From a virus: 10,376 nucleotides of DNA. Positions within the stretch are counted from its first letter, which is position 1. Every line of letters starts with the position of its first letter. Location: the IMG/VR virus record IMGVR_UViG_3300027706_000225; one strand, written 5' to 3'. Under the pieces are notes generated by a model, which did not search any database, was not told the origin of the DNA, and worked only from the letters and a program-made list of their open reading frames with translations. The position numbers were made by a program, and so were the translations under genes. Shown here piece by piece: positions 1,071 to 10,376 of the stretch.

Positions 1071-1215
1071 GGTTGTACGTATACTCCCATACACGAGTGT
1101 ATACTGCCATAGTATGCTTGAACGCCCATGGCATGCACTTGCTTTTGAGCAGTACGTCACTCACAATTGTTCACTCAGCGAAACGTTACGTTGCTTGCAT
1201 GATGCGGGTTTCAAG
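1071..1215. promoter_or_regulatory. AT-rich divergent intergenic region with two 13-bp direct repeats, GTATACTcCCATA (1079-1091) and GTATACTgCCATA (1099-1111), plus GTATAC/TACGTA palindromes
   Basis: GC content is visibly lower than the flanks. The repeats are spaced 20 bp apart, about two helical turns. The region sits between the divergent minus-strand 4-gene operon and the plus-strand endonuclease VII gene. No convincing -35/-10 could be called. Confidence 0.4.
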
Positions 1216-1635
1216 ATGACTCGCACTCCACTTCGACAATTCTTGTTGAATCGCGGTGTGCTTCGCCCCAACACTCATGGTGGGTGGATGTGTGTGAAAC
1301 GAAAACCGCGACAATGTGAGTACTGTCATAACGAGTACGTGCCTGTTTCACGTACGCAACGTTGGTGTAAGACCTGTTGTCCTACTCGAAAAGATGCAGG
1401 TAGAATGTCAACATATGGGCTAACAATCTCAGCCTTCAACGAGATGATGCTTCGCTCTAATGGACGATGCGAAATTTGCGGGGAATGTTTTTCTGATGTT
1501 CCTTGTATCGACCATGATCATGTCACCAAGCGCGTAAGAGGTTTGCTCTGCACACAGTGCAACTTGCGATTGGGACATGTTGAAGTAGGACCAGACTGGT
1601 ATGTCAAAGCAGCCGCGTATCTCCAACGAGCGTGA
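1216..1635 (+). CDS. Recombination endonuclease VII family protein (phage T4 gp49-like, Endonuclease_7 / HNH-type)
   Basis: Translation contains CEICGECFSDVPCIDHDHVTKRVRGLLCTQCNLRLG. This is the Endonuclease_7 signature: a C-x2-C and C-x2-C zinc knuckle flanking DHDH...RGLLC..CN..LG. An N-terminal C-x2-C/C-x3-CC cluster is also present (CEYCH...CKTCCP). Start ATG at 1216; the track's upstream extension lies in the AT-rich intergenic region. Confidence 0.85.
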   Translation: MTRTPLRQFLLNRGVLRPNTHGGWMCVKRKPRQCEYCHNEYVPVSRTQRWCKTCCPTRKDAGRMSTYGLTISAFNEMMLRSNGRCEICGECFSDVPCIDHDHVTKRVRGLLCTQCNLRLGHVEVGPDWYVKAAAYLQRA

Positions 1636-1891
1636 ACTTCCCTCCGATGTCCTCCAGTTCCTCCTGGACCACCCCGACGAGGTCCAGCACGTCCGCTACC
1701 GCATGAAAGACATGGAGGAACGGATGATGCGGCCGATTCGCGAGGAAGAGGAGAGGAAACGACGTGCAGCCCTTCCCCTCAAGAAGTGCACCGCCCTGCC
1801 CTACACCAACTGCCAGAACATGACGCCGGGAGGCTACATCTGTGATGACTGCGCAGCCGAGTATCGAGAAGACCCCGACGCTTTCAAGTGA
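1601..1891 (+). CDS. Small Cys-rich (zinc-ribbon-like) protein; start uncertain (ATG 1601 overlapping the EndoVII 3' end, or ATG 1703)
   Basis: High GC3 in this frame runs from at least 1631 to the TGA at 1889-1891. The C-terminal part reads KKCTALPYTNCQNMTPGGYICDDCAAEY, four Cys. The only in-frame ATGs are at 1601 (35-nt overlap with the endonuclease gene) and 1703. Confidence 0.4.
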   Translation: MSKQPRISNERELPSDVLQFLLDHPDEVQHVRYRMKDMEERMMRPIREEEERKRRAALPLKKCTALPYTNCQNMTPGGYICDDCAAEYREDPDAFK

Positions 1892-1925
1892 GCCGTTCGA
1901 CCTCGACGCCCTTGAACGAGAGGTC

Positions 1926-2249
1926 ATGCGACGGGCTGACTCCATGACGCCCGAGCTGCTGCCTCGCCTGCTCATGGCGTTGCTCAAACGTGACTCGTTG
2001 GTCTACTGCGAGCGGCACATGACGAAGCTGTTCCCGTACATCCGAGCCCAGATCAGCCTGACCCGGGCCCGACGGAACTACTACCGGGACGATTGGGTTC
2101 AACCCTGCTCCCAAGACGCATCGCTTTACGGCATCGTCAGCTCGCCGGTCAGCACTGAGCGGCTGTACAAGATGGCACTTGAACACCGAGACAGAGTCCG
2201 CCAAGAATATCGGTCAACACCGTGCGTCTGCTTCCAGCCGCACCGCTAA
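1926..2249 (+). CDS. Hypothetical protein (107 aa; alternative start ATG 1842 would give 135 aa)
   Basis: ATG 1926 is preceded by GAGAGG 4 nt upstream, and the frame shows GC3 bias. ATG 1842 would overlap the previous gene by about 50 nt. Stop TAA at 2247-2249. Confidence 0.45.
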   Translation: MRRADSMTPELLPRLLMALLKRDSLVYCERHMTKLFPYIRAQISLTRARRNYYRDDWVQPCSQDASLYGIVSSPVSTERLYKMALEHRDRVRQEYRSTPCVCFQPHR

Positions 2250-2265
2250 CCCAAGGAACGACATC

Positions 2266-2673
2266 ATGAGCGAGAACGAGAACCAGGAACAGGCATCCGA
2301 GACGGTGCAGACGGAGAAGGAGAGCGCCGTCAACAGCATGCTCTCCGCGATCGCGTCGCGCATCAAGGACAGCAACCCCGAGGTCGTGGAACGCTGGCAG
2401 GACGCCCAGGTCGAGAAGGAAGTCTCCACGAGGGTGGACCTGCTCGACAAGGCGATGCAACGCCGGTTCCAGTGCCTCACCGAGCTCAACAAGGTCAACC
2501 GCCCCGACAACGAGACGTTCAACGCCGACGGCTCGCGGGCCAGCGCCTCCTACTCGAAGGACCGCCTCAAGGCGATCAAGGACGCGAAGGAAGCGCTCGC
2601 CAAGGTGGAGCACGCCCTCGAGAAGGCGTTGGTCCACAACGAGTGGCAGAAGATCAAGGAGCTCAAGGGCTGA
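2266..2673 (+). CDS. Hypothetical acidic, predicted helical protein (135 aa)
   Basis: ATG 2266 with AAGGAA 8 nt upstream. Translation MSENENQEQASETVQTEKES...ALAKVEHALEKALVHNEWQKIKELKG is E/K-rich and predicted helical. Stop TGA at 2671-2673. Confidence 0.65.
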   Translation: MSENENQEQASETVQTEKESAVNSMLSAIASRIKDSNPEVVERWQDAQVEKEVSTRVDLLDKAMQRRFQCLTELNKVNRPDNETFNADGSRASASYSKDRLKAIKDAKEALAKVEHALEKALVHNEWQKIKELKG

Positions 2674-2700
2674 ACAAGCCCCCGCGGCGGGCAGTACAAT
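2671..2700 (+). promoter_or_regulatory. Candidate sigma70-like promoter TGAACA-N18-TACAAT giving a leaderless transcript at ATG 2708
   Basis: TGAACA at 2671-2676 and TACAAT at 2695-2700. The -10 ends 7 nt before ATG 2708, which has no SD. This is consistent with the leaderless mRNAs common in high-GC Gram-positives. Confidence 0.3.
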
Positions 2701-2707
2701 CTGCCGC

Positions 2708-3070
2708 ATGACAGACGACGAAGCGAAGACACTGAGGGCGGCGCTCGATGAGAACGTCGCCCTTCGTGACAACTTGAGGTCGACACAGGAGCGGTGCAGC
2801 GCGCTGCTCACCGAGAACCGGGCCCTTCGCCACCAGCTCGCGACGATGAAGCTGCGGTGGCTCCAGCTGCTGGAGATGCCGTGCTGGGAGCCGGGACCCG
2901 ATGATGGTACGCTCGTCTTGAACTACGAGGTCAAGCACGGCGACCACAAGGACAACCGGATCATCATCGAACGAGACGTCAGCCCGCCGTCGCACCGTTG
3001 CGTCGAGAGCGGGCACTCGTACGGGCACGGAGACACCTGCTACTACTGCGGGCACAAGGACGAGACATGA
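2708..3070 (+). CDS. Hypothetical protein with N-terminal coiled coil and C-terminal Cys/His cluster (120 aa)
   Basis: ATG 2708. Translation reads LRAALDENVALRDNLRSTQERCSALLTENRALRHQLATMKLRW then ...HRCVESGHSYGHGDTCYYCGH. The stop TGA (3068-3070) overlaps the next ATG as ATGA. Confidence 0.55.
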   Translation: MTDDEAKTLRAALDENVALRDNLRSTQERCSALLTENRALRHQLATMKLRWLQLLEMPCWEPGPDDGTLVLNYEVKHGDHKDNRIIIERDVSPPSHRCVESGHSYGHGDTCYYCGHKDET

Positions 3071-3615
3071 GCGAAGACATCAAGTGGGTCAAGCCCTGGT
3101 GCAAGATGAACCTCGACGAGCTGGAGGATTACCGCGGCTTCGTCGTCGCCGTTCATCCGGAACACGGCATCATCAACGCTGCACGGAACGTCGCCACGCT
3201 GCACGAGCAGCTGGAGTTCACGAAGCGGAAGGTGCGAGCAAAGGTCGCCGTCGTCTACACCAGCGACTACCTGCCCCCGCTCGACGATGCTCGCATGGAG
3301 GATGACGACGGCGAAGAGCCGGTGCCCGAGGATCCGGATCCCCCGCCCCCGCTCGCTCCTCCCGTCGATCTCTTCGACACGACCGAGATCACGCTCGACG
3401 GTTCACGGCACCCTGAGGCTCCGATCGAGGCCGAACACGGTCTCGCCCCTCTTCCCAACGATGGCCCGGGACCCGAAAAGGCCACACCGTTCCCCAGCAA
3501 GGACCCCCAGCCGCCCTTCACGCCCCGCCGTGACCTCAGCAACCTGAGGGTCGATGGGGTCATGCACCCGGGTGCCCGAGGTTCCTGGGGCGGGCGTGGT
3601 CCTCGGTACGACTGA
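3067..3615 (+). CDS. Hypothetical protein with Pro/Asp/Glu-rich low-complexity C-terminal half (182 aa)
   Basis: ATG 3067-3069 overlaps the upstream stop (ATGA). Translation MSEDIKWVKPWCKMNLDELEDYRGFVVAVHPEHGIINAARN... is followed by EDPDPPPPLAPPVD...PQPPFTPRRD. The track's start at 2998 is an upstream over-extension. Confidence 0.6.
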   Translation: MSEDIKWVKPWCKMNLDELEDYRGFVVAVHPEHGIINAARNVATLHEQLEFTKRKVRAKVAVVYTSDYLPPLDDARMEDDDGEEPVPEDPDPPPPLAPPVDLFDTTEITLDGSRHPEAPIEAEHGLAPLPNDGPGPEKATPFPSKDPQPPFTPRRDLSNLRVDGVMHPGARGSWGGRGPRYD

Positions 3616-4200
3616 CCTAGTTAACATGTGACTTGGCACGTTTACGTTGACTGGACGCTTGAGGAGACGCCTCGACCATTTTACGTGGGAAAGGGCACTC
3701 CAGATCGTCTTCGAAAGAAGCAACGTAACATCGTTCACTCTCGCATCGCGAAAAAGTACGGCATGCGACGCGAGGTTGTGTTGACAACTGATGTTGAGCG
3801 TCAAGCGCTTGATGTCGAAGTTCAACTCATTCAAGAACATCGCACGTTTGTGGACGGCGGTACTGGTTGGTGGGGCGCCAATCTTACGTTGGGTGGCGAG
3901 GGCGTTTCGGGCACACACATCAACAAGGGTCGAACGTTCAGCGCCGAACATCGTCAAAAACTCAGTCAAGCTCGTCGTGGCAGGGCGCCTTGGAACAAAG
4001 GACAGCAAAACGTCTACACGGATGAAGCCCTTGCCAAGATCAAGAAAGCACGTTCACGTCAAGTCACATCAACGGAAACGAAGCAGAAGATTGCTGACGG
4101 TGTCCGTCGTTCATGGAGCAAACGATGCGACTGACAATGGGACAGCTTCGAAAACTTCTGCGTGAAGTAGGGGCAAATAATTCGTGGCCGGGCCAGCCGT
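3616..4200 (+). mobile_element. Second low-GC island carrying a free-standing GIY-YIG homing endonuclease gene
   Basis: Composition drops to roughly 50% GC from about 3616 to about 4200. The island holds a single endonuclease ORF inserted between two ORFs of the plus-strand block. Confidence 0.45.
3628..4134 (+). CDS. GIY-YIG homing endonuclease with C-terminal NUMOD3 DNA-binding repeats (I-TevI / Seg-like)
   Basis: The N-terminus VTWHVYVDWTLEETPRPFYVGKGTPDRLRKKQRN...LIQEH...N..GG matches the GIY-x10-YIG, conserved Arg, catalytic Glu and Asn architecture. The C-terminus has two NUMOD3-like repeats, GRTFSAEHRQKLSQARRG and TSTETKQKIADGVRRSW. The only available start is GTG 3628, and the SD is weak. 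Confidence 0.8.
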   Translation: MTWHVYVDWTLEETPRPFYVGKGTPDRLRKKQRNIVHSRIAKKYGMRREVVLTTDVERQALDVEVQLIQEHRTFVDGGTGWWGANLTLGGEGVSGTHINKGRTFSAEHRQKLSQARRGRAPWNKGQQNVYTDEALAKIKKARSRQVTSTETKQKIADGVRRSWSKRCD

Positions 4201-4454
4201 ATGGTCGGAGCGTGACATCGCCCGACATCAACTCACGCGAACAGCTGGGCGCGATCTCGGCGAAGGCTATCGACACCGTGGCAGACCCGGACGGTCTGCC
4301 CGATCACCTGCTCGAACCCCAGGTGGACCCCGAGGACTGCTTTGGTCCCGTTCCACCCGATGCAGAGCCCCCGTACGTGGGGCAAGATCCCTTCGCTCGG
4401 GACGTCAGCCCGAACCCGACTGGCACCATCAAGCGCGGTCCTACGCGCGTCTGA
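4137..4454 (+). CDS. Hypothetical protein (105 aa); start uncertain
   Basis: The frame is open with high GC3 after the first dozen or so codons. It ends at TGA 4452-4454, overlapping the convergent minus-strand gene by 14 nt. The first 60 nt are still low-GC and may belong to the endonuclease island. Confidence 0.3.
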   Translation: MGQLRKLLREVGANNSWPGQPYGRSVTSPDINSREQLGAISAKAIDTVADPDGLPDHLLEPQVDPEDCFGPVPPDAEPPYVGQDPFARDVSPNPTGTIKRGPTRV

Positions 4455-4788
4455 CCTCGGCGTCGAGGCGGTCCCGTTCCCAAGTCCGTTGCCGCTCTTC
4501 CCAGACGGGATCAGCGATGCGACGGATCCATCCAAACTTCCCTTCGTGCCAGGCGAGTCGTGCAGAGGCTCCGAGGAGCAGGAAGCGCCAGTGACCGACG
4601 AATGCATTCCTGGGCTCTGGAACGTACTCTTTGCCGATGACAGTCCAGGGAGTCTCGCTCTCCCAGAAGACCGGGTTGGGGTCGGTGAACAGCGGCTTGT
4701 CTCCCTCGACCTTCTCGCGGACGAAGAAGAACATCATGCCCGGGTAGATGTCCTCGTGGTTCAGCTGCTCACGTTCGGGGAAGTTCAT
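4441..4788 (-). CDS. Hypothetical protein (115 aa)
   Basis: ATG 4788-4786 with GGAGGA about 12 nt upstream. Strong GC3 bias. Translation reads MNFPEREQLNHEDIYPGMMFFFVREKVEGDKPLFTDPNPVFWESETPWTVIGKEY... It overlaps the upstream gene by 20 nt. Confidence 0.6.
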   Translation of the reverse strand: MNFPEREQLNHEDIYPGMMFFFVREKVEGDKPLFTDPNPVFWESETPWTVIGKEYVPEPRNAFVGHWRFLLLGASARLAWHEGKFGWIRRIADPVWEERQRTWERDRLDAEVRRA

Positions 4789-6840: not shown

Positions 6841-8796
6841 TCAGTCGGACGACTTCTCGGACGGCTTCCGGGCACCGTTGCCGTTGGCCTTGGGCTCGTG
6901 CTTGTCGCCCGTGATCAGGTTGGCGAGTAGGACGCTGGCGAGGTTGTTGATGCCGCCGCCTCCGCCCTCACCGCCACCACCTGCGACGATCTGCGGGACG
7001 AGCGGGTGCTTGCCGTTGGCGAGAGCCCGAGCGACCTCGATCGTGGCGTAGTTGGTCTGGTCGACGGCGAGCGCCTTGGCCTTGATGACCTCGGCTTCCG
7101 CCTGACCGACTGCGGTGATGCTCTTGCCGTTGGCTTCGCCGGTCATCTGGATGACCTTCGCATCGGCCTCAGCCTGGACCGTCTTCGCTGCGGCTTCCGC
7201 CTGGGCGTTGACCGTCTTCACCTTGGCCTGGGCCTCGGCCTTGACGACGTCCATGTCGGCGCTGGCCTTGGCGTTGATGACCATCGACCGCGAGTCACCT
7301 TCCGCCTTCTTCACGGCCTGCTGGGCCTCGAACTCGGCGATGGCGACCTTCCGTTCGGCGTCGACGACCTTGGCCTGCGTGGCGGCAGTCGCCTTCGCCT
7401 GCTCGAGGTCCTTGCGCTTCTCCTCGGCGAGGCGCTGGGTCTCGAAGGTCATCTGCTCCTGCTCGGCGATCTTGCGATCGGTGAGGGTCTTCATCAGCTC
7501 CTTCGGCGGCGTGATGTCACCGATGAGAGTGTCGACGGCGACGACGTTGTAGTCGGCCAACGCCTTGCTGATGGCGTTCTTGGCGTCGTCCTGGCGGTTC
7601 TTGCGGTCACCGAGGAACTTGATGACGTCCGAACCCTGAGCGGCGTTGCGGAAGTAGTTGCCGATCGTCGGCTCCAGGACCTGGGTGACCAGGTTGGCGA
7701 CGTTGCCGAAGCGAGCGATCACCTTCGGAGCGTCCGTCCTGGGGATGTGGATGATCTGCGAGACGTCCAGGTTGAACGTGAACCCGTCGTTGGACCGCAC
7801 CGTGATGGTGCTGAGGTTCTTGTCCAGCATGTGAGCCTCGGTCTTGCCGGTCGCCCAGTTCAGGACGATGTTAGCCGTCGGCACGCTCTCGACCCGGTGG
7901 GTGTACGGGTTGATCGGATAGCGACCGGGATCGAGGGGCTCGGCCCAGACGCCCTTCTCACCCTTGCTGACGAGGTTGCCGTGCTTGAAGGCCTCACCGG
8001 TGACATCGACGCCGGGTTTGCCGACGAAGGCGATGACGCAGCCGGCGTGAGCGATGGGCACCTCGGTCATGTCGACTTCCTCGACCGTGGCGAACAGTGG
8101 GTTGATGAAGTACCGTCCCGCCAGGATCACCTGCTCTTGCAGGCCCTTCTTCCCTCCGTTGTCGAGGAAGATCTGCGGGTTCTGGTACATGTTGTGTCCG
8201 GAGATCTCGGGACCCGCGATGTCACCGGTGTCGAGGGGCGTGCCCTCCTTGGTGGTGACGACGCCGACCTTGTTGTCCTTGATCTCGGTGCAGTTGCAGA
8301 GGTTGACCTCGAACAGGCCGGTGTTGATGCGGTACTGCCCGGGCGGGATGATGGCGAGCTGTGGACCACGTTCGCCGCCGCCCAGCAGGAACTGACGAGC
8401 GTTCTGGAACGAGTCGCACTCGACCGTCTTGCCGAGGATGCGCCCGCCGCTGATCGCCTTGCCATCGCGGCTGGTGACGACGCCGAGCTTTCCACGCTCG
8501 ATGGTGATGAACTTCTGGATGTCGATCTGGTACTGCCAGGGCCACAGACCGAAGTGGATGCCCGGGGGCAGGGTGTCGGCTTGGACACCGGCCTCACCGT
8601 TGAGAGCGACGATCGCTCCGTCGGGGAGTGCCTTGTTGGCGCCGAAGAGGACGAACTTCTTGGTGACGATGCCGATGGCGTCTTCGGGGATGCTGACCAT
8701 CCCGAACAGCCTCAGCACGAGCCGGTGCAGGACCAGCGCGAGGAGGACGAGGATGCCTCCGACGATGAGGGGCAGGTGGGAAACGACGGATTCCAT
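6841..8796 (-). CDS. Flotillin-family SPFH (band 7) domain protein, YqiK-like (651 aa)
   Basis: ATG 8796. The protein has an N-terminal TM helix (LPLIVGGILVLLALVLHRLVL), an SPFH core (STITVRSNDGFTFNLDVSQIIHIPRTD...RKNRQDDAKNAISKALADYNVVAVDTLIGDITPP) and a long flotillin-type EA/AK-rich coiled coil (AKATAATQAKVVDAERKVAIAEFEAQQAVKKAEGD...AEAQAKVKTVNAQAEAAAKTVQAEADAK). A Gly-rich tail follows (GGGGEGGGGG). Confidence 0.8.
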   Translation of the reverse strand: MESVVSHLPLIVGGILVLLALVLHRLVLRLFGMVSIPEDAIGIVTKKFVLFGANKALPDGAIVALNGEAGVQADTLPPGIHFGLWPWQYQIDIQKFITIERGKLGVVTSRDGKAISGGRILGKTVECDSFQNARQFLLGGGERGPQLAIIPPGQYRINTGLFEVNLCNCTEIKDNKVGVVTTKEGTPLDTGDIAGPEISGHNMYQNPQIFLDNGGKKGLQEQVILAGRYFINPLFATVEEVDMTEVPIAHAGCVIAFVGKPGVDVTGEAFKHGNLVSKGEKGVWAEPLDPGRYPINPYTHRVESVPTANIVLNWATGKTEAHMLDKNLSTITVRSNDGFTFNLDVSQIIHIPRTDAPKVIARFGNVANLVTQVLEPTIGNYFRNAAQGSDVIKFLGDRKNRQDDAKNAISKALADYNVVAVDTLIGDITPPKELMKTLTDRKIAEQEQMTFETQRLAEEKRKDLEQAKATAATQAKVVDAERKVAIAEFEAQQAVKKAEGDSRSMVINAKASADMDVVKAEAQAKVKTVNAQAEAAAKTVQAEADAKVIQMTGEANGKSITAVGQAEAEVIKAKALAVDQTNYATIEVARALANGKHPLVPQIVAGGGGEGGGGGINNLASVLLANLITGDKHEPKANGNGARKPSEKSSD

Positions 8797-8869: not shown

Positions 8870-10376
8870 TCAGGCTCGGGCCGACCGGCTCGCGCCGTTC
8901 GAGGCCTCGGTGCCCTTGGTCAGGGTGGCGAGCTGGTTGCCCAGCACGGTGCCCTTGAGCAGCTCGTTGAAGATCTCGGCGACGCCCTTCTTGCCACCGC
9001 CGATGATGGCCAGGGGCGCCATCGCTTCGGCGAGCTTCTCGGCGAGAGCCTTGTCTCCGAAGGCCTGGAGAGCCGCGATGAACGCCGGTTCGATGGCCTT
9101 GCCCTTGTCGACCGTGGCTTGGACCTGGGCCGCGAGCTTCTCGAGCTCGAGCGCCTGGAGCTGGGCCTGGTGAGCACGTTCCGAAGCCTGGCGGGCTTCC
9201 TGGGTCGCCAACTCGAGAGCCGCGACTTCCGCCGCAGCCTTCTCGTTCGCCAGGTTGTTGGCCGCACGGGCCGCGTTCGCCGCCGCTTCCGCAGCGAGCT
9301 GGTCGGCCTGCTGCTTGGCGTTGTTGGCGATGAGCGAGAGGTCGAGAGCGAGCTTCCGCTCCGCGTTGATGCGCTGCAGCTCGAGGGTGGCGCGCTGCGT
9401 CTCCGCACGGGCCTCCTCGGTCGCACGCTTCAGCTCCTCGGTCTCCTTCACGAAGTCCAGCTTGCGCCGCTCTTCCGCGAGGACGAGGGTGTTCTGGATG
9501 ACGGACCGCTGCGCGGCGACGAGGAGCTTCTCGACGTCGGCATTCTGCATCTCGATGCCGAGGACCTCGGCGTCGTAGATCCGCATGTTGTTCTCGGGGA
9601 ACACCGTGCCGGTGCGGGCCTCGTCCTTCGAGTGCTTGGCACCGAGGATGATGTCCCGGAGGATCGGGGTGTGGTTGCCGTAGAACTCCTCGATGCCCAG
9701 CTTCTGCACCGCCGAGCGGATGCGAGACCGCATCGCGTCGCAGAGGAACTTGACGTAGTTGTCCACCGCGAACCAGCGCTCGGGGTTGTCACCCTCGAAG
9801 TTGACGCGGTAGGAGACCTTGACGTTGAGGCGGCAGAAGTCCTTGGTCTCGACCTGGATGACGTCGCTGACCATGTTGTTGGCGACCTGCAGGTACACGT
9901 CGCGCTTCAGCTGGTCGGTCGACTTCGGCTTGCCCGTCGAGAGCGAGAGGACCTGCGGGTTCTCGTCGTACTCGAGCATGTAGGTGCCCGGACCCTGGAT
10001 GACCCGGCGCTGGCCGCCCTTGCTGACGAGCAGCATGGCGTAGCCGGTCCAGAGCGTCACGGCGACGGCGCCGTCGTACTTGGTGTTGAGGATGACCGAA
10101 CGCGGAGCGGTGAACTTCGACTTGCGGTCGAAGGCGTCGCCCGGCAGCGCGTTGCTGGCGTTCTTGATCAGGACGCGGCCGCGAGAGAACTCCCTTAGGA
10201 AGCGCGGGATCGTCGTCCGGTCGCGCTCGCCATAGAGCCAGCTCGGGCGGATGACCGTCAGCGGCAGTTTGCCCGCGTCGGCGAGGTCCCAGAGAATGCG
10301 CTCGCAGTCGACCTTGCTGCGGGTGTAGTAATCCATGAACCAGACGTTCTGTCCCAGGGGCTCGGACTCGTCCACA
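8870..10376 (-). CDS. SPFH-like domain protein with C-terminal Ala/Glu-rich coiled coil; partial. The N-terminal visible part resembles the C-terminal half of an extended-SDR NAD-dependent epimerase/dehydratase
   Basis: The frame is open from the window end to TGA 8872-8870. The SPFH-like core reads VIQVETKDFCRLNVKVSYRVNFEGD...MRSRIRSAVQKLGIEEF...LRDIILGA, preceded by a hydrophobic segment (AVAVTLWTGYAMLLV). The coiled coil reads KLDFVKETEELKRATEEARAETQRATLELQRINAERK...LAAEAAANAARAANNLANEKAAAEVAALE. The visible N-terminal 110 aa carry YTRSK...LPLTVIRPSWLYGERD...IPRFLREFSRG, an SDR-like Y-x3-K / YG / IPxFI pattern. Confidence 0.7.
   Translation of the reverse strand, partial: VDESEPLGQNVWFMDYYTRSKVDCERILWDLADAGKLPLTVIRPSWLYGERDRTTIPRFLREFSRGRVLIKNASNALPGDAFDRKSKFTAPRSVILNTKYDGAVAVTLWTGYAMLLVSKGGQRRVIQGPGTYMLEYDENPQVLSLSTGKPKSTDQLKRDVYLQVANNMVSDVIQVETKDFCRLNVKVSYRVNFEGDNPERWFAVDNYVKFLCDAMRSRIRSAVQKLGIEEFYGNHTPILRDIILGAKHSKDEARTGTVFPENNMRIYDAEVLGIEMQNADVEKLLVAAQRSVIQNTLVLAEERRKLDFVKETEELKRATEEARAETQRATLELQRINAERKLALDLSLIANNAKQQADQLAAEAAANAARAANNLANEKAAAEVAALELATQEARQASERAHQAQLQALELEKLAAQVQATVDKGKAIEPAFIAALQAFGDKALAEKLAEAMAPLAIIGGGKKGVAEIFNELLKGTVLGNQLATLTKGTEASNGASRSARA

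Follow-up and report, generated by a model that had tools for sequence, protein, structure and literature searches.

Two probable free-standing homing endonuclease genes placed between native leaders and the genes they precede in a huge-phage-like genome

How did two small nuclease genes, each poorer in GC than its neighbours, come to stand within one run of native phage genes? The question is raised by IMG/VR record IMGVR_UViG_3300027706_000225, a stretch of 10,376 nt that was analysed in full (the window) and on which positions are counted throughout, except where a related locus is named. One of the two genes encodes a protein of the endonuclease VII (EndoVII) type and the other a protein with a predicted GIY-YIG domain and NUMOD3-type repeats. 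A preliminary description, drawn up from the letters of the window, had taken both for recently acquired homing endonuclease genes (HEGs). On comparison with related loci, we consider it highly probable that two unrelated, free-standing HEGs were inserted into a single plus-strand block of a huge-phage-like genome and spread there by homing. Three assemblies (a 32.9-kb ENA contig, a Logan contig and the window) were 100% identical over their common parts, both low-GC islands included, which rules out an assembly artefact for the islands. The gene block is co-directional, as had been described: every gene in 1114–4454 lies on the plus strand, with minus-strand neighbours on both sides. The features of the two insertion points are as follows.

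1072–1113, plus strand: native AT-rich, promoter-like leader (TGTAC-N-GTATACTGC-N5-ATG), abutting the EndoVII start codon
1114–1635, plus strand: EndoVII-type gene, probable free-standing HEG, 173 aa, DHHRN/F-CphI-like; its ORF is open from ATG 1069
1601–1891, plus strand: native gene o96, with its start codon and first approximately eight codons inside the 3' end of the EndoVII ORF
3616–3623, with a 4-nt spacer to 3627, plus strand: native leader CCTAGTTA, which sits before the o113 start in relatives
3628–4134, plus strand: GIY-YIG and NUMOD3 gene, probable free-standing HEG, 168 aa, GTG start
4125–4454, plus strand: native gene o113, with its ATG 10 nt inside the GIY ORF, in ATGCGACTGA, where the HEG stop also falls

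At both sites, the HEG lies precisely where a conserved native upstream element would otherwise meet the ORF that it normally serves. The HEG start occupies the native start position, and the displaced native gene starts inside the 3' end of the HEG. At the first site, the leader carries a box that is found in relatives upstream of the first plus-strand gene (TGTAY-N15–20-GTAYACTGC-N4–6-ATG). The window copy spans 1074–1108, before ATG 1114; among related loci (designated by L numbers), the same box precedes o96 in L033 (7797–7836) and an unrelated first gene in L034 (7412–7452). GTAYACTGC occurs once per locus, at the leader site, and a TAnAnT hexamer lies within the box, 6–8 nt from the ATG. 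From this arrangement, we infer that the GTAYACTGC box is a promoter yielding leaderless or near-leaderless mRNA. A scan for sigma-70 promoters and intrinsic terminators gave nothing at the island borders and zero terminators; this generic scan did not call the GTAYACTGC box. At the other end of the gene, the reported overlap of the EndoVII 3' end with the next ORF was found to measure 35 nt, from the o96 start ATG at 1601 to the EndoVII end at 1635. The o96 orthologues in L033 and L039 begin at codon 9 of the window gene, where the window has no start codon, and window o96 carries approximately eight additional N-terminal codons compared to these orthologues.

At the second site, the leader CCTAGTTA and 4 nt precede the GTG at 3628 of the GIY-YIG gene. 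The corresponding pattern in relatives, CCTA[GCA]TTA followed by 4–7 nt and GTG or ATG, stands before o113 in more than 12 loci (L033, L034, L039, L036, L038, L047, L069, L051, L055, L062 and others), at approximately 9987–10000 in L033 and 9969–9982 in L034. It is kept where the o113 proteins are only 44–81% identical, so that conservation is higher in the leader than in the coding sequence. The leader does not resemble a Shine–Dalgarno sequence. GTG 3628 is the sole possible start of ORF 3628–4134, in agreement with the preliminary description. Its position is that of the native o113 GTG start, taken over behind the conserved leader, and this accounts for the unusual start codon.

The 5' end of the displaced o113 is compositionally foreign. 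Its first 60 nt (4125–4184) have a GC content at third codon positions (GC3) of 0.35 versus 0.75 in the remainder of the gene, and the same 60 nt in the HEG-less loci L033, L034 and L039 have a GC3 of 0.65–0.75. This 5' segment has a deletion of 5–7 codons compared to orthologues, and its allele, MGQLRKL(I)LREVG, is common to the window and the HEG-bearing L046. The foreign first 60 nt may be a co-conversion tract, imported with the HEG from a lower-GC relative. GC contents across the phage clade range from 43 to 68%, which makes such a relative a plausible donor. A 13-nt direct repeat with 11 of 13 positions identical brackets the GIY insertion, one copy (CGGTACGACTGAC, 3604–3616) being the end of o182 and the other (CGATGCGACTGAC, 4123–4135) the start of o113. 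The pair could be microhomology used at insertion but is not counted as evidence; three other repeats of like quality occur in the same 800 nt. A transposon signature in the form of flanking direct or inverted repeats was rejected, as short repeats at chance level were all that was found.

Alignment with relatives that lack the insertions defined precise junctions at both sites. In L033 (a 369-kb contig), no gene stands between the divergent o117 and o96, which lie only 57 bp apart; L034, L036-type loci and L055 have no EndoVII gene at the o117|o96 junction. In L039 (a 156-kb contig), the junction holds an EndoVII gene 42% identical to that of the window, with 39% GC and a GC3 of 0.30 between flanks of 57–62% GC. 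The o182–o113 gap is approximately 14–29 bp and contains no nuclease gene in L033, L034/L049 and L039; in L036-type loci, in which no o182 homologue was detected, the leader directly abuts the o113 start, again without a nuclease gene. Among about 24 distinct loci showing the region, a HEG abuts the o113 start only in the window and L046. The L046 locus is among the closest relatives (o113 is 81% identical in protein to that of the window), and its contig begins inside a NUMOD3 gene, 48% identical over 48 aligned residues, that overlaps the o113 start. A different ORF of 115 aa is present at the o182|o113 junction in L074 (678–1025) and also in L047 and L069, upstream of the leader; its GC is native, and no similarity to endonucleases was detected. 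The occurrence of this unrelated ORF points to the junction as a general hotspot for gene insertion.

Homologous nuclease genes were also located elsewhere in these genomes. EndoVII paralogues lie between m96 and the methionine aminopeptidase (MetAP) gene (L034/L049), between m115 and m147 (L063), at 2318–2725 in L034 and at 4276–4677 in L001. GIY paralogues are found just downstream of o113 in L067, between o113 and m96 in L053/54, beside a Metallophos gene in L075 and, in L036-type loci, between the Metallophos gene and o117, the last of these matching PF01541 with E = 9e-7. Paralogues were present at no fewer than (that is, at least) eight other positions, and nearly all are GC-poorer than their own genome. 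One further candidate, P0002, which appeared in three contexts, was rejected as a single locus assembled three times. Such a patchy distribution, at varying positions, is the hallmark by which free-standing HEGs are recognized in genome comparisons. Both window genes are separate ORFs between host genes, are not in an intron or intein and show presence/absence polymorphism; a search of the window against Rfam at gathering thresholds detected no RNA families, group I introns included. Empty junctions in most relatives, same-site homologues and paralogues elsewhere thus bear out the proposal of two unrelated, independently mobile, free-standing HEGs.

Composition sets the two genes apart from their surroundings. 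The GC content of the window is 61.9%, with two sharp troughs at about 1075–1640 and 3600–4185. Two islands against a background of approximately 62% had been described correctly, although the second, at approximately 53%, falls outside the 48–50% given for both. The EndoVII gene (1114–1635) has 48.3% GC and a GC3 of 0.43 and the GIY gene (3628–4134) has 52.7% GC and a GC3 of 0.51, compared to 59–66% GC and a GC3 of 0.68–0.95 in the native window genes. GC is back at the native level immediately past the EndoVII stop codon (1633–1635).

The further claim that the genes were recently acquired was not sustained. In a search of 5.8 billion proteins, the nearest homologues of the EndoVII protein were at most 50% identical, and the closest of the GIY protein were 47–61% identical, with the upper value reached over partial length. 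The same-site EndoVII gene of L039 is about as diverged from its window counterpart (42% identity) as are the flanking genes (35–61%) and yet has an even lower GC content. Low GC is therefore a persistent trait of the family and not a clock. A low-GC island cannot date an acquisition here, where HEG copies are GC-poor whatever their apparent age.

The assignment of the first ORF to the EndoVII family was confirmed by profile searches. ORF 1069–1635 matched Pfam Endonuclease_7 (PF02945) with 54.8 bits (cut-off 23.6 bits; E = 9e-15) over aa 114–186 of the 188-aa ORF, and PHROG endonuclease VII families matched it at E = 3e-23; NCBIfam was uninformative for both nucleases. In the homologue alignment, close homologues start at M16, so the likely start is ATG 1114, giving 173 aa, rather than 1069, and residue numbers are counted from ATG 1114. 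The catalytic and zinc-binding motif is intact (C119-x2-C122, D133-H134-D135-H136, R142 and C146-x2-C149-N150), and in an alignment of 23 sequences C119, C122, D133, H134, H136, R142, C146, C149 and N150 are invariant, while D135 is not. In the AF2 model (pLDDT 91), a three-helix DNA-binding domain (aa 5–46) is predicted in the helix-turn-helix-like N-terminal part, followed by a Cys4 zinc ribbon and a C-terminal nuclease of beta-beta-alpha fold (aa ~99–171, nt ~1408–1626). The nuclease motif is C-terminal, the Pfam stretch stopping 2 aa before the end of the protein.

HEGs that carry the Endo VII motif at the C-terminus form an established family, and the motif CX2–4C...DHDH...R...CX2C-N was defined for the F-CphI 'DHHRN' HEG family by Fang et al. 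2018 (PMC6083498). Judged by motif position and alignments, the window protein has the arrangement of the 'endonuclease clade'. By motif, it resembles F-CphI of cyanophage S-PM2 in the EndoVII catalytic motif, its C-terminal position and its occurrence as a free-standing phage gene beside the targeted gene, which for the window protein is a predicted target. It differs in its three-helix domain at the N-terminus and its additional Cys4 ribbon. F-CphI acts together with a psbA group I intron, and no intron was detected in the window. A family profile searched against PDB matched T4 EndoVII (1e7d, E = 1.5e-14) and R.Hpy99I (3fc3, E = 8e-14). The likeness to both is in the catalytic core, and the Hpy99I alignment spans the zinc ribbon and ends at both C-termini. 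R.Hpy99I, however, has a partner methylase, which the window gene lacks, and T4 EndoVII (gp49) is a structure-specific resolvase with an N-terminal nuclease and a C-terminal dimerization domain that is absent from the window protein.

These similarities bear on a reading in which both genes are native and merely odd in composition, the EndoVII gene encoding a Holliday-junction resolvase or packaging nuclease like T4 gp49 and the GIY-YIG gene a housekeeping repair nuclease. PF02945 is named after the T4 resolvase, which the family profile matches at E = 1.5e-14, and the EndoVII homologue of L039 is syntenic. Against this, most relatives lack the genes at these junctions, several EndoVII paralogues occur per 20 kb at differing positions, GC3 is far from native, and the motif stands C-terminally behind a DNA-binding domain, as in the 'endonuclease clade' of Fang et al. 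and not as in the resolvases. We regard a native origin as scarcely credible.

For the second protein, the profile evidence was divided between its two parts, which are placed as follows.

3628–3912, plus strand: predicted GIY-YIG domain, aa 1–95
3928–4128, plus strand: NUMOD3-type helical repeats, aa 101–167

NUMOD3 (PF07460) matched aa 101–127 with 31.1 bits (cut-off 20.4 bits), with more helical repeats extending to aa 167, and a PHROG homing endonuclease family also matched ORF 3628–4134. The NUMOD3 half of the earlier assignment was therefore supported by a profile, but Pfam GIY-YIG (PF01541) gave no match to the window protein at E ≤ 0.1. A precomputed PF01541 match exists for just 7 of 69 homologues, and a PDB profile search with the family returned marginal matches only (9u75, E = 0.034), along with a weak match to the DNA-binding domain of I-TevI (1i3j). 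With PF01541 below detection, structure prediction was needed to establish the GIY-YIG domain. The model has a pLDDT of 84 overall and above 90 over residues 1–90, and its beta-beta-alpha-alpha-beta-alpha order is that of GIY-YIG domains. Y6, Y19, R27, E64 and N85 are invariant across 30 homologues and, by the predicted topology, would occupy the canonical GIY, YIG, Arg, Glu and Asn catalytic positions.

Among known systems, the GIY protein shares a NUMOD3 minor-groove-binding element with I-TevI, and its gene is free-standing and intergenic as are those of T4 Seg (SegA–G). It differs from both in belonging to a divergent subfamily under PF01541 detection, with the motif PFYVGKG. Unlike in I-TevI, the NUMOD3 repeats are not followed by a zinc finger or helix-turn-helix, and the protein is not intron-encoded; in contrast to the Seg genes of T-even phages, the gene lies in a high-GC huge-phage background.

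The condition of the two proteins was considered in relation to a second alternative, that one or both genes are decaying, immobile remnants, fixed in this lineage and tolerated because o96 and o113 now take their start signals from them. No member of its family is shorter than the GIY protein, which has few NUMOD3 repeats, and the same-site homologues of the two genes are only 42–48% identical. In addition, o96 and o113 depend on start codons inside the HEGs, which would make HEG deletion costly. Both ORFs, however, are full length compared to several homologues of 173–198 aa and are free of frameshifts, their metal-binding and catalytic residues are all conserved, and the predicted folds are confident, so that decay of either gene appears very unlikely.

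ORFs and catalytic residues that are all intact despite an apparently long stay in the clade would also suit nucleases that benefit their carrier, kept as weapons against co-infecting related phages (marker exclusion) or against modified or unmodified competitor DNA. Free-standing HEGs of T4 are known to cause marker exclusion (PMC2988022). Yet no significant match to PADLOC defence families was obtained: the GIY protein had none and the EndoVII protein had a single marginal one (REase_II, E = 0.004, 14.7 bits). No partner methylase or immunity gene lies nearby. A role in competition is compatible with homing and hard to tell apart from it by sequence; as the explanation for the presence of the two genes, we consider it rather improbable.

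For two mobile, free-standing HEGs, the following route of spread can be proposed. The HEGs would be expressed from the native signals that they have come to stand behind, and the downstream native genes would be translated via termination–reinitiation coupling. On co-infection with a HEG-less relative, the enzyme would cut at or near the empty leader/start junction, and double-strand-break repair would copy the HEG plus some flanking sequence from the HEG-bearing genome. Cleavage, target site and homing event are all predicted from the genomic footprint. Several parts of this route have precedents in T4, in which free-standing HEGs are driven by the signals of a neighbour, are translationally coupled and spread with co-conversion of flanks, and in which mobE, segC, segF, mobA and mobC overlap native ORFs by 1–24 nt (Edgell, Gibb & Belfort 2010, PMC2988022). 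The geometry differs, however: in T4, overlap is usually between the start of the HEG and the end of the gene before it, whereas in the window the HEG takes the native start behind the leader, and it is the native gene downstream that has to begin, at a coupled start, within the HEG.

A number of observations weigh against insertion followed by active homing. No near-identical donor copy is present in databases, so that recent transfer is not established. At the EndoVII site, where the L039 copy is about as diverged as its flanks, repeated homing explains the distribution no better than an ancient insertion with vertical descent and repeated loss would. Because the window and L046 are closely related, the GIY gene was perhaps acquired once, in their common ancestor; L047 is as close to the window as L046 at the nucleotide level. 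Nucleotide comparison of the o113 5' tract with 24 relatives gave no donor, the tract being too short and the alignments unstable, and the low GC at the o113 5' end could instead come from selection on translation initiation. The GIY protein, at 168 aa, is short compared to the mostly 190–260 aa of its homologues, with fewer NUMOD3 repeats and without an extra DNA-binding domain, and could therefore be losing specificity.

The shared geometry of the two sites invites a more specific proposal, which we put forward tentatively and think less likely than not: both lineages may be specialized in recognizing the conserved leader/start-codon junctions of o96 and o113 and so in capturing a leader. 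If so, insertion would of itself bring the HEG under a native expression signal, which at the first site may be a leaderless-mRNA promoter. Translation of the host gene would come to depend on the HEG, whose loss would then be costly, and the HEGs that are 42–48% identical at the same junctions would represent long-lived, site-faithful lineages among huge phages of 43–68% GC.

Viewed as free-standing HEGs, both genes are ordinary, and the phenomenon is well known; only the precision of the insertion points is unusual, and the leader-capture geometry is a neat detail within it. HEG-rich jumbo phages have already been reported (PMC12880540), and overlapping starts and co-conversion were previously documented, so that the general understanding of HEGs is unchanged. 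The locus does provide two cleanly delimited examples in an uncultured huge-phage clade, with empty and occupied alleles both available, and candidate target sites for two poorly characterized subfamilies, one combining a helix-turn-helix, a zinc ribbon and an EndoVII nuclease and the other a Pfam-invisible GIY-YIG domain with NUMOD3.

Two sequence similarities between the islands were also assessed. A near-identical 12-nt motif had been reported at the 5' side of both and suggested as a shared promoter or recognition element. Both copies exist, 2–4 nt away from where they had been placed.

1183–1193, plus strand: first motif copy, ACGTTACGTTG, inside the EndoVII ORF
3638–3649, plus strand: second motif copy, ACGTTTACGTTG, inside the GIY ORF, where it encodes H-V-Y-V-D (the 'GIY' strand)

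The motif is intragenic in both genes, and its two copies stand in different reading frames. In 201 of 300 dinucleotide-preserving shuffles, the two islands shared an 11-nt match with one indel or better, and ACGTT(T)ACGTTG was rejected as a functional element at this chance level. Separately, the tetranucleotide ACGT was found 2–2.5-fold over its dinucleotide-based expectation in both islands (7 versus 3.9 in 1072–1635 and 10 versus 4.3 in 3616–4184). The count of 10 was reached in 0.3% of shuffles; native genes are without the excess, as are most homologous HEGs elsewhere. The excess may be a faint trace of a donor common to both islands, or it may be due to chance.

The surroundings of the block indicate the kind of genome that received the HEGs. 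Neighbouring genes encode MetAP, a 651-aa SPFH protein and a protein resembling the major vault protein (MVP). The syntenic relatives are IMG/VR viral contigs, the largest of 369 kb, with further relatives from metagenomes, and the SPFH protein is 54% identical to its counterpart in a 642-kb uncultured phage (LR756502.1). On the size of these relatives and the SPFH match, the host genome is huge-phage-like. LR756502.1 was dropped as a synteny reference, as the SPFH gene alone is in common within ±20 kb. In a megablast search with the whole window, none of 50,697 phage records matched, and a search for related loci among viral contigs based on o182 recovered no relatives.

On the window's own contig (L001), two features at 3021–3290 and 4276–4677 lie 5–7 kb upstream of the window: a gene for an eIF-1a/IF1-like protein and a second Endonuclease_7 gene, which is shorter (133 aa) and has a GC3 of 0.71, near native. 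This second nuclease gene may be an older, ameliorated HEG copy.

At the other end of the window, the last ORF (8870–10375, minus strand) exits the window and matches the MVP shoulder domain (PF11978, E = 3e-30) and a Vault_3 repeat (E = 4e-7). A long Ala/Glu-rich coiled coil follows the vault domains, giving an MVP-like architecture. The ORF is adjoined by the SPFH/Band_7 protein (651 aa, 6841–8796, minus strand), and the two proteins are kept at 54–84% identity in the related huge-phage contigs L033, L034, L004 and L053. A literature search found no paper tying MVP directly to huge or jumbo phages. The N-terminal ~67 aa of the last ORF (10175–10375, minus strand) resemble the C-terminal part of an NAD-dependent epimerase (PF01370, E = 3e-4). 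As the window ends there, the stretch may belong to a separate epimerase gene that lies upstream and is read in the same frame, or to a fusion of the two.

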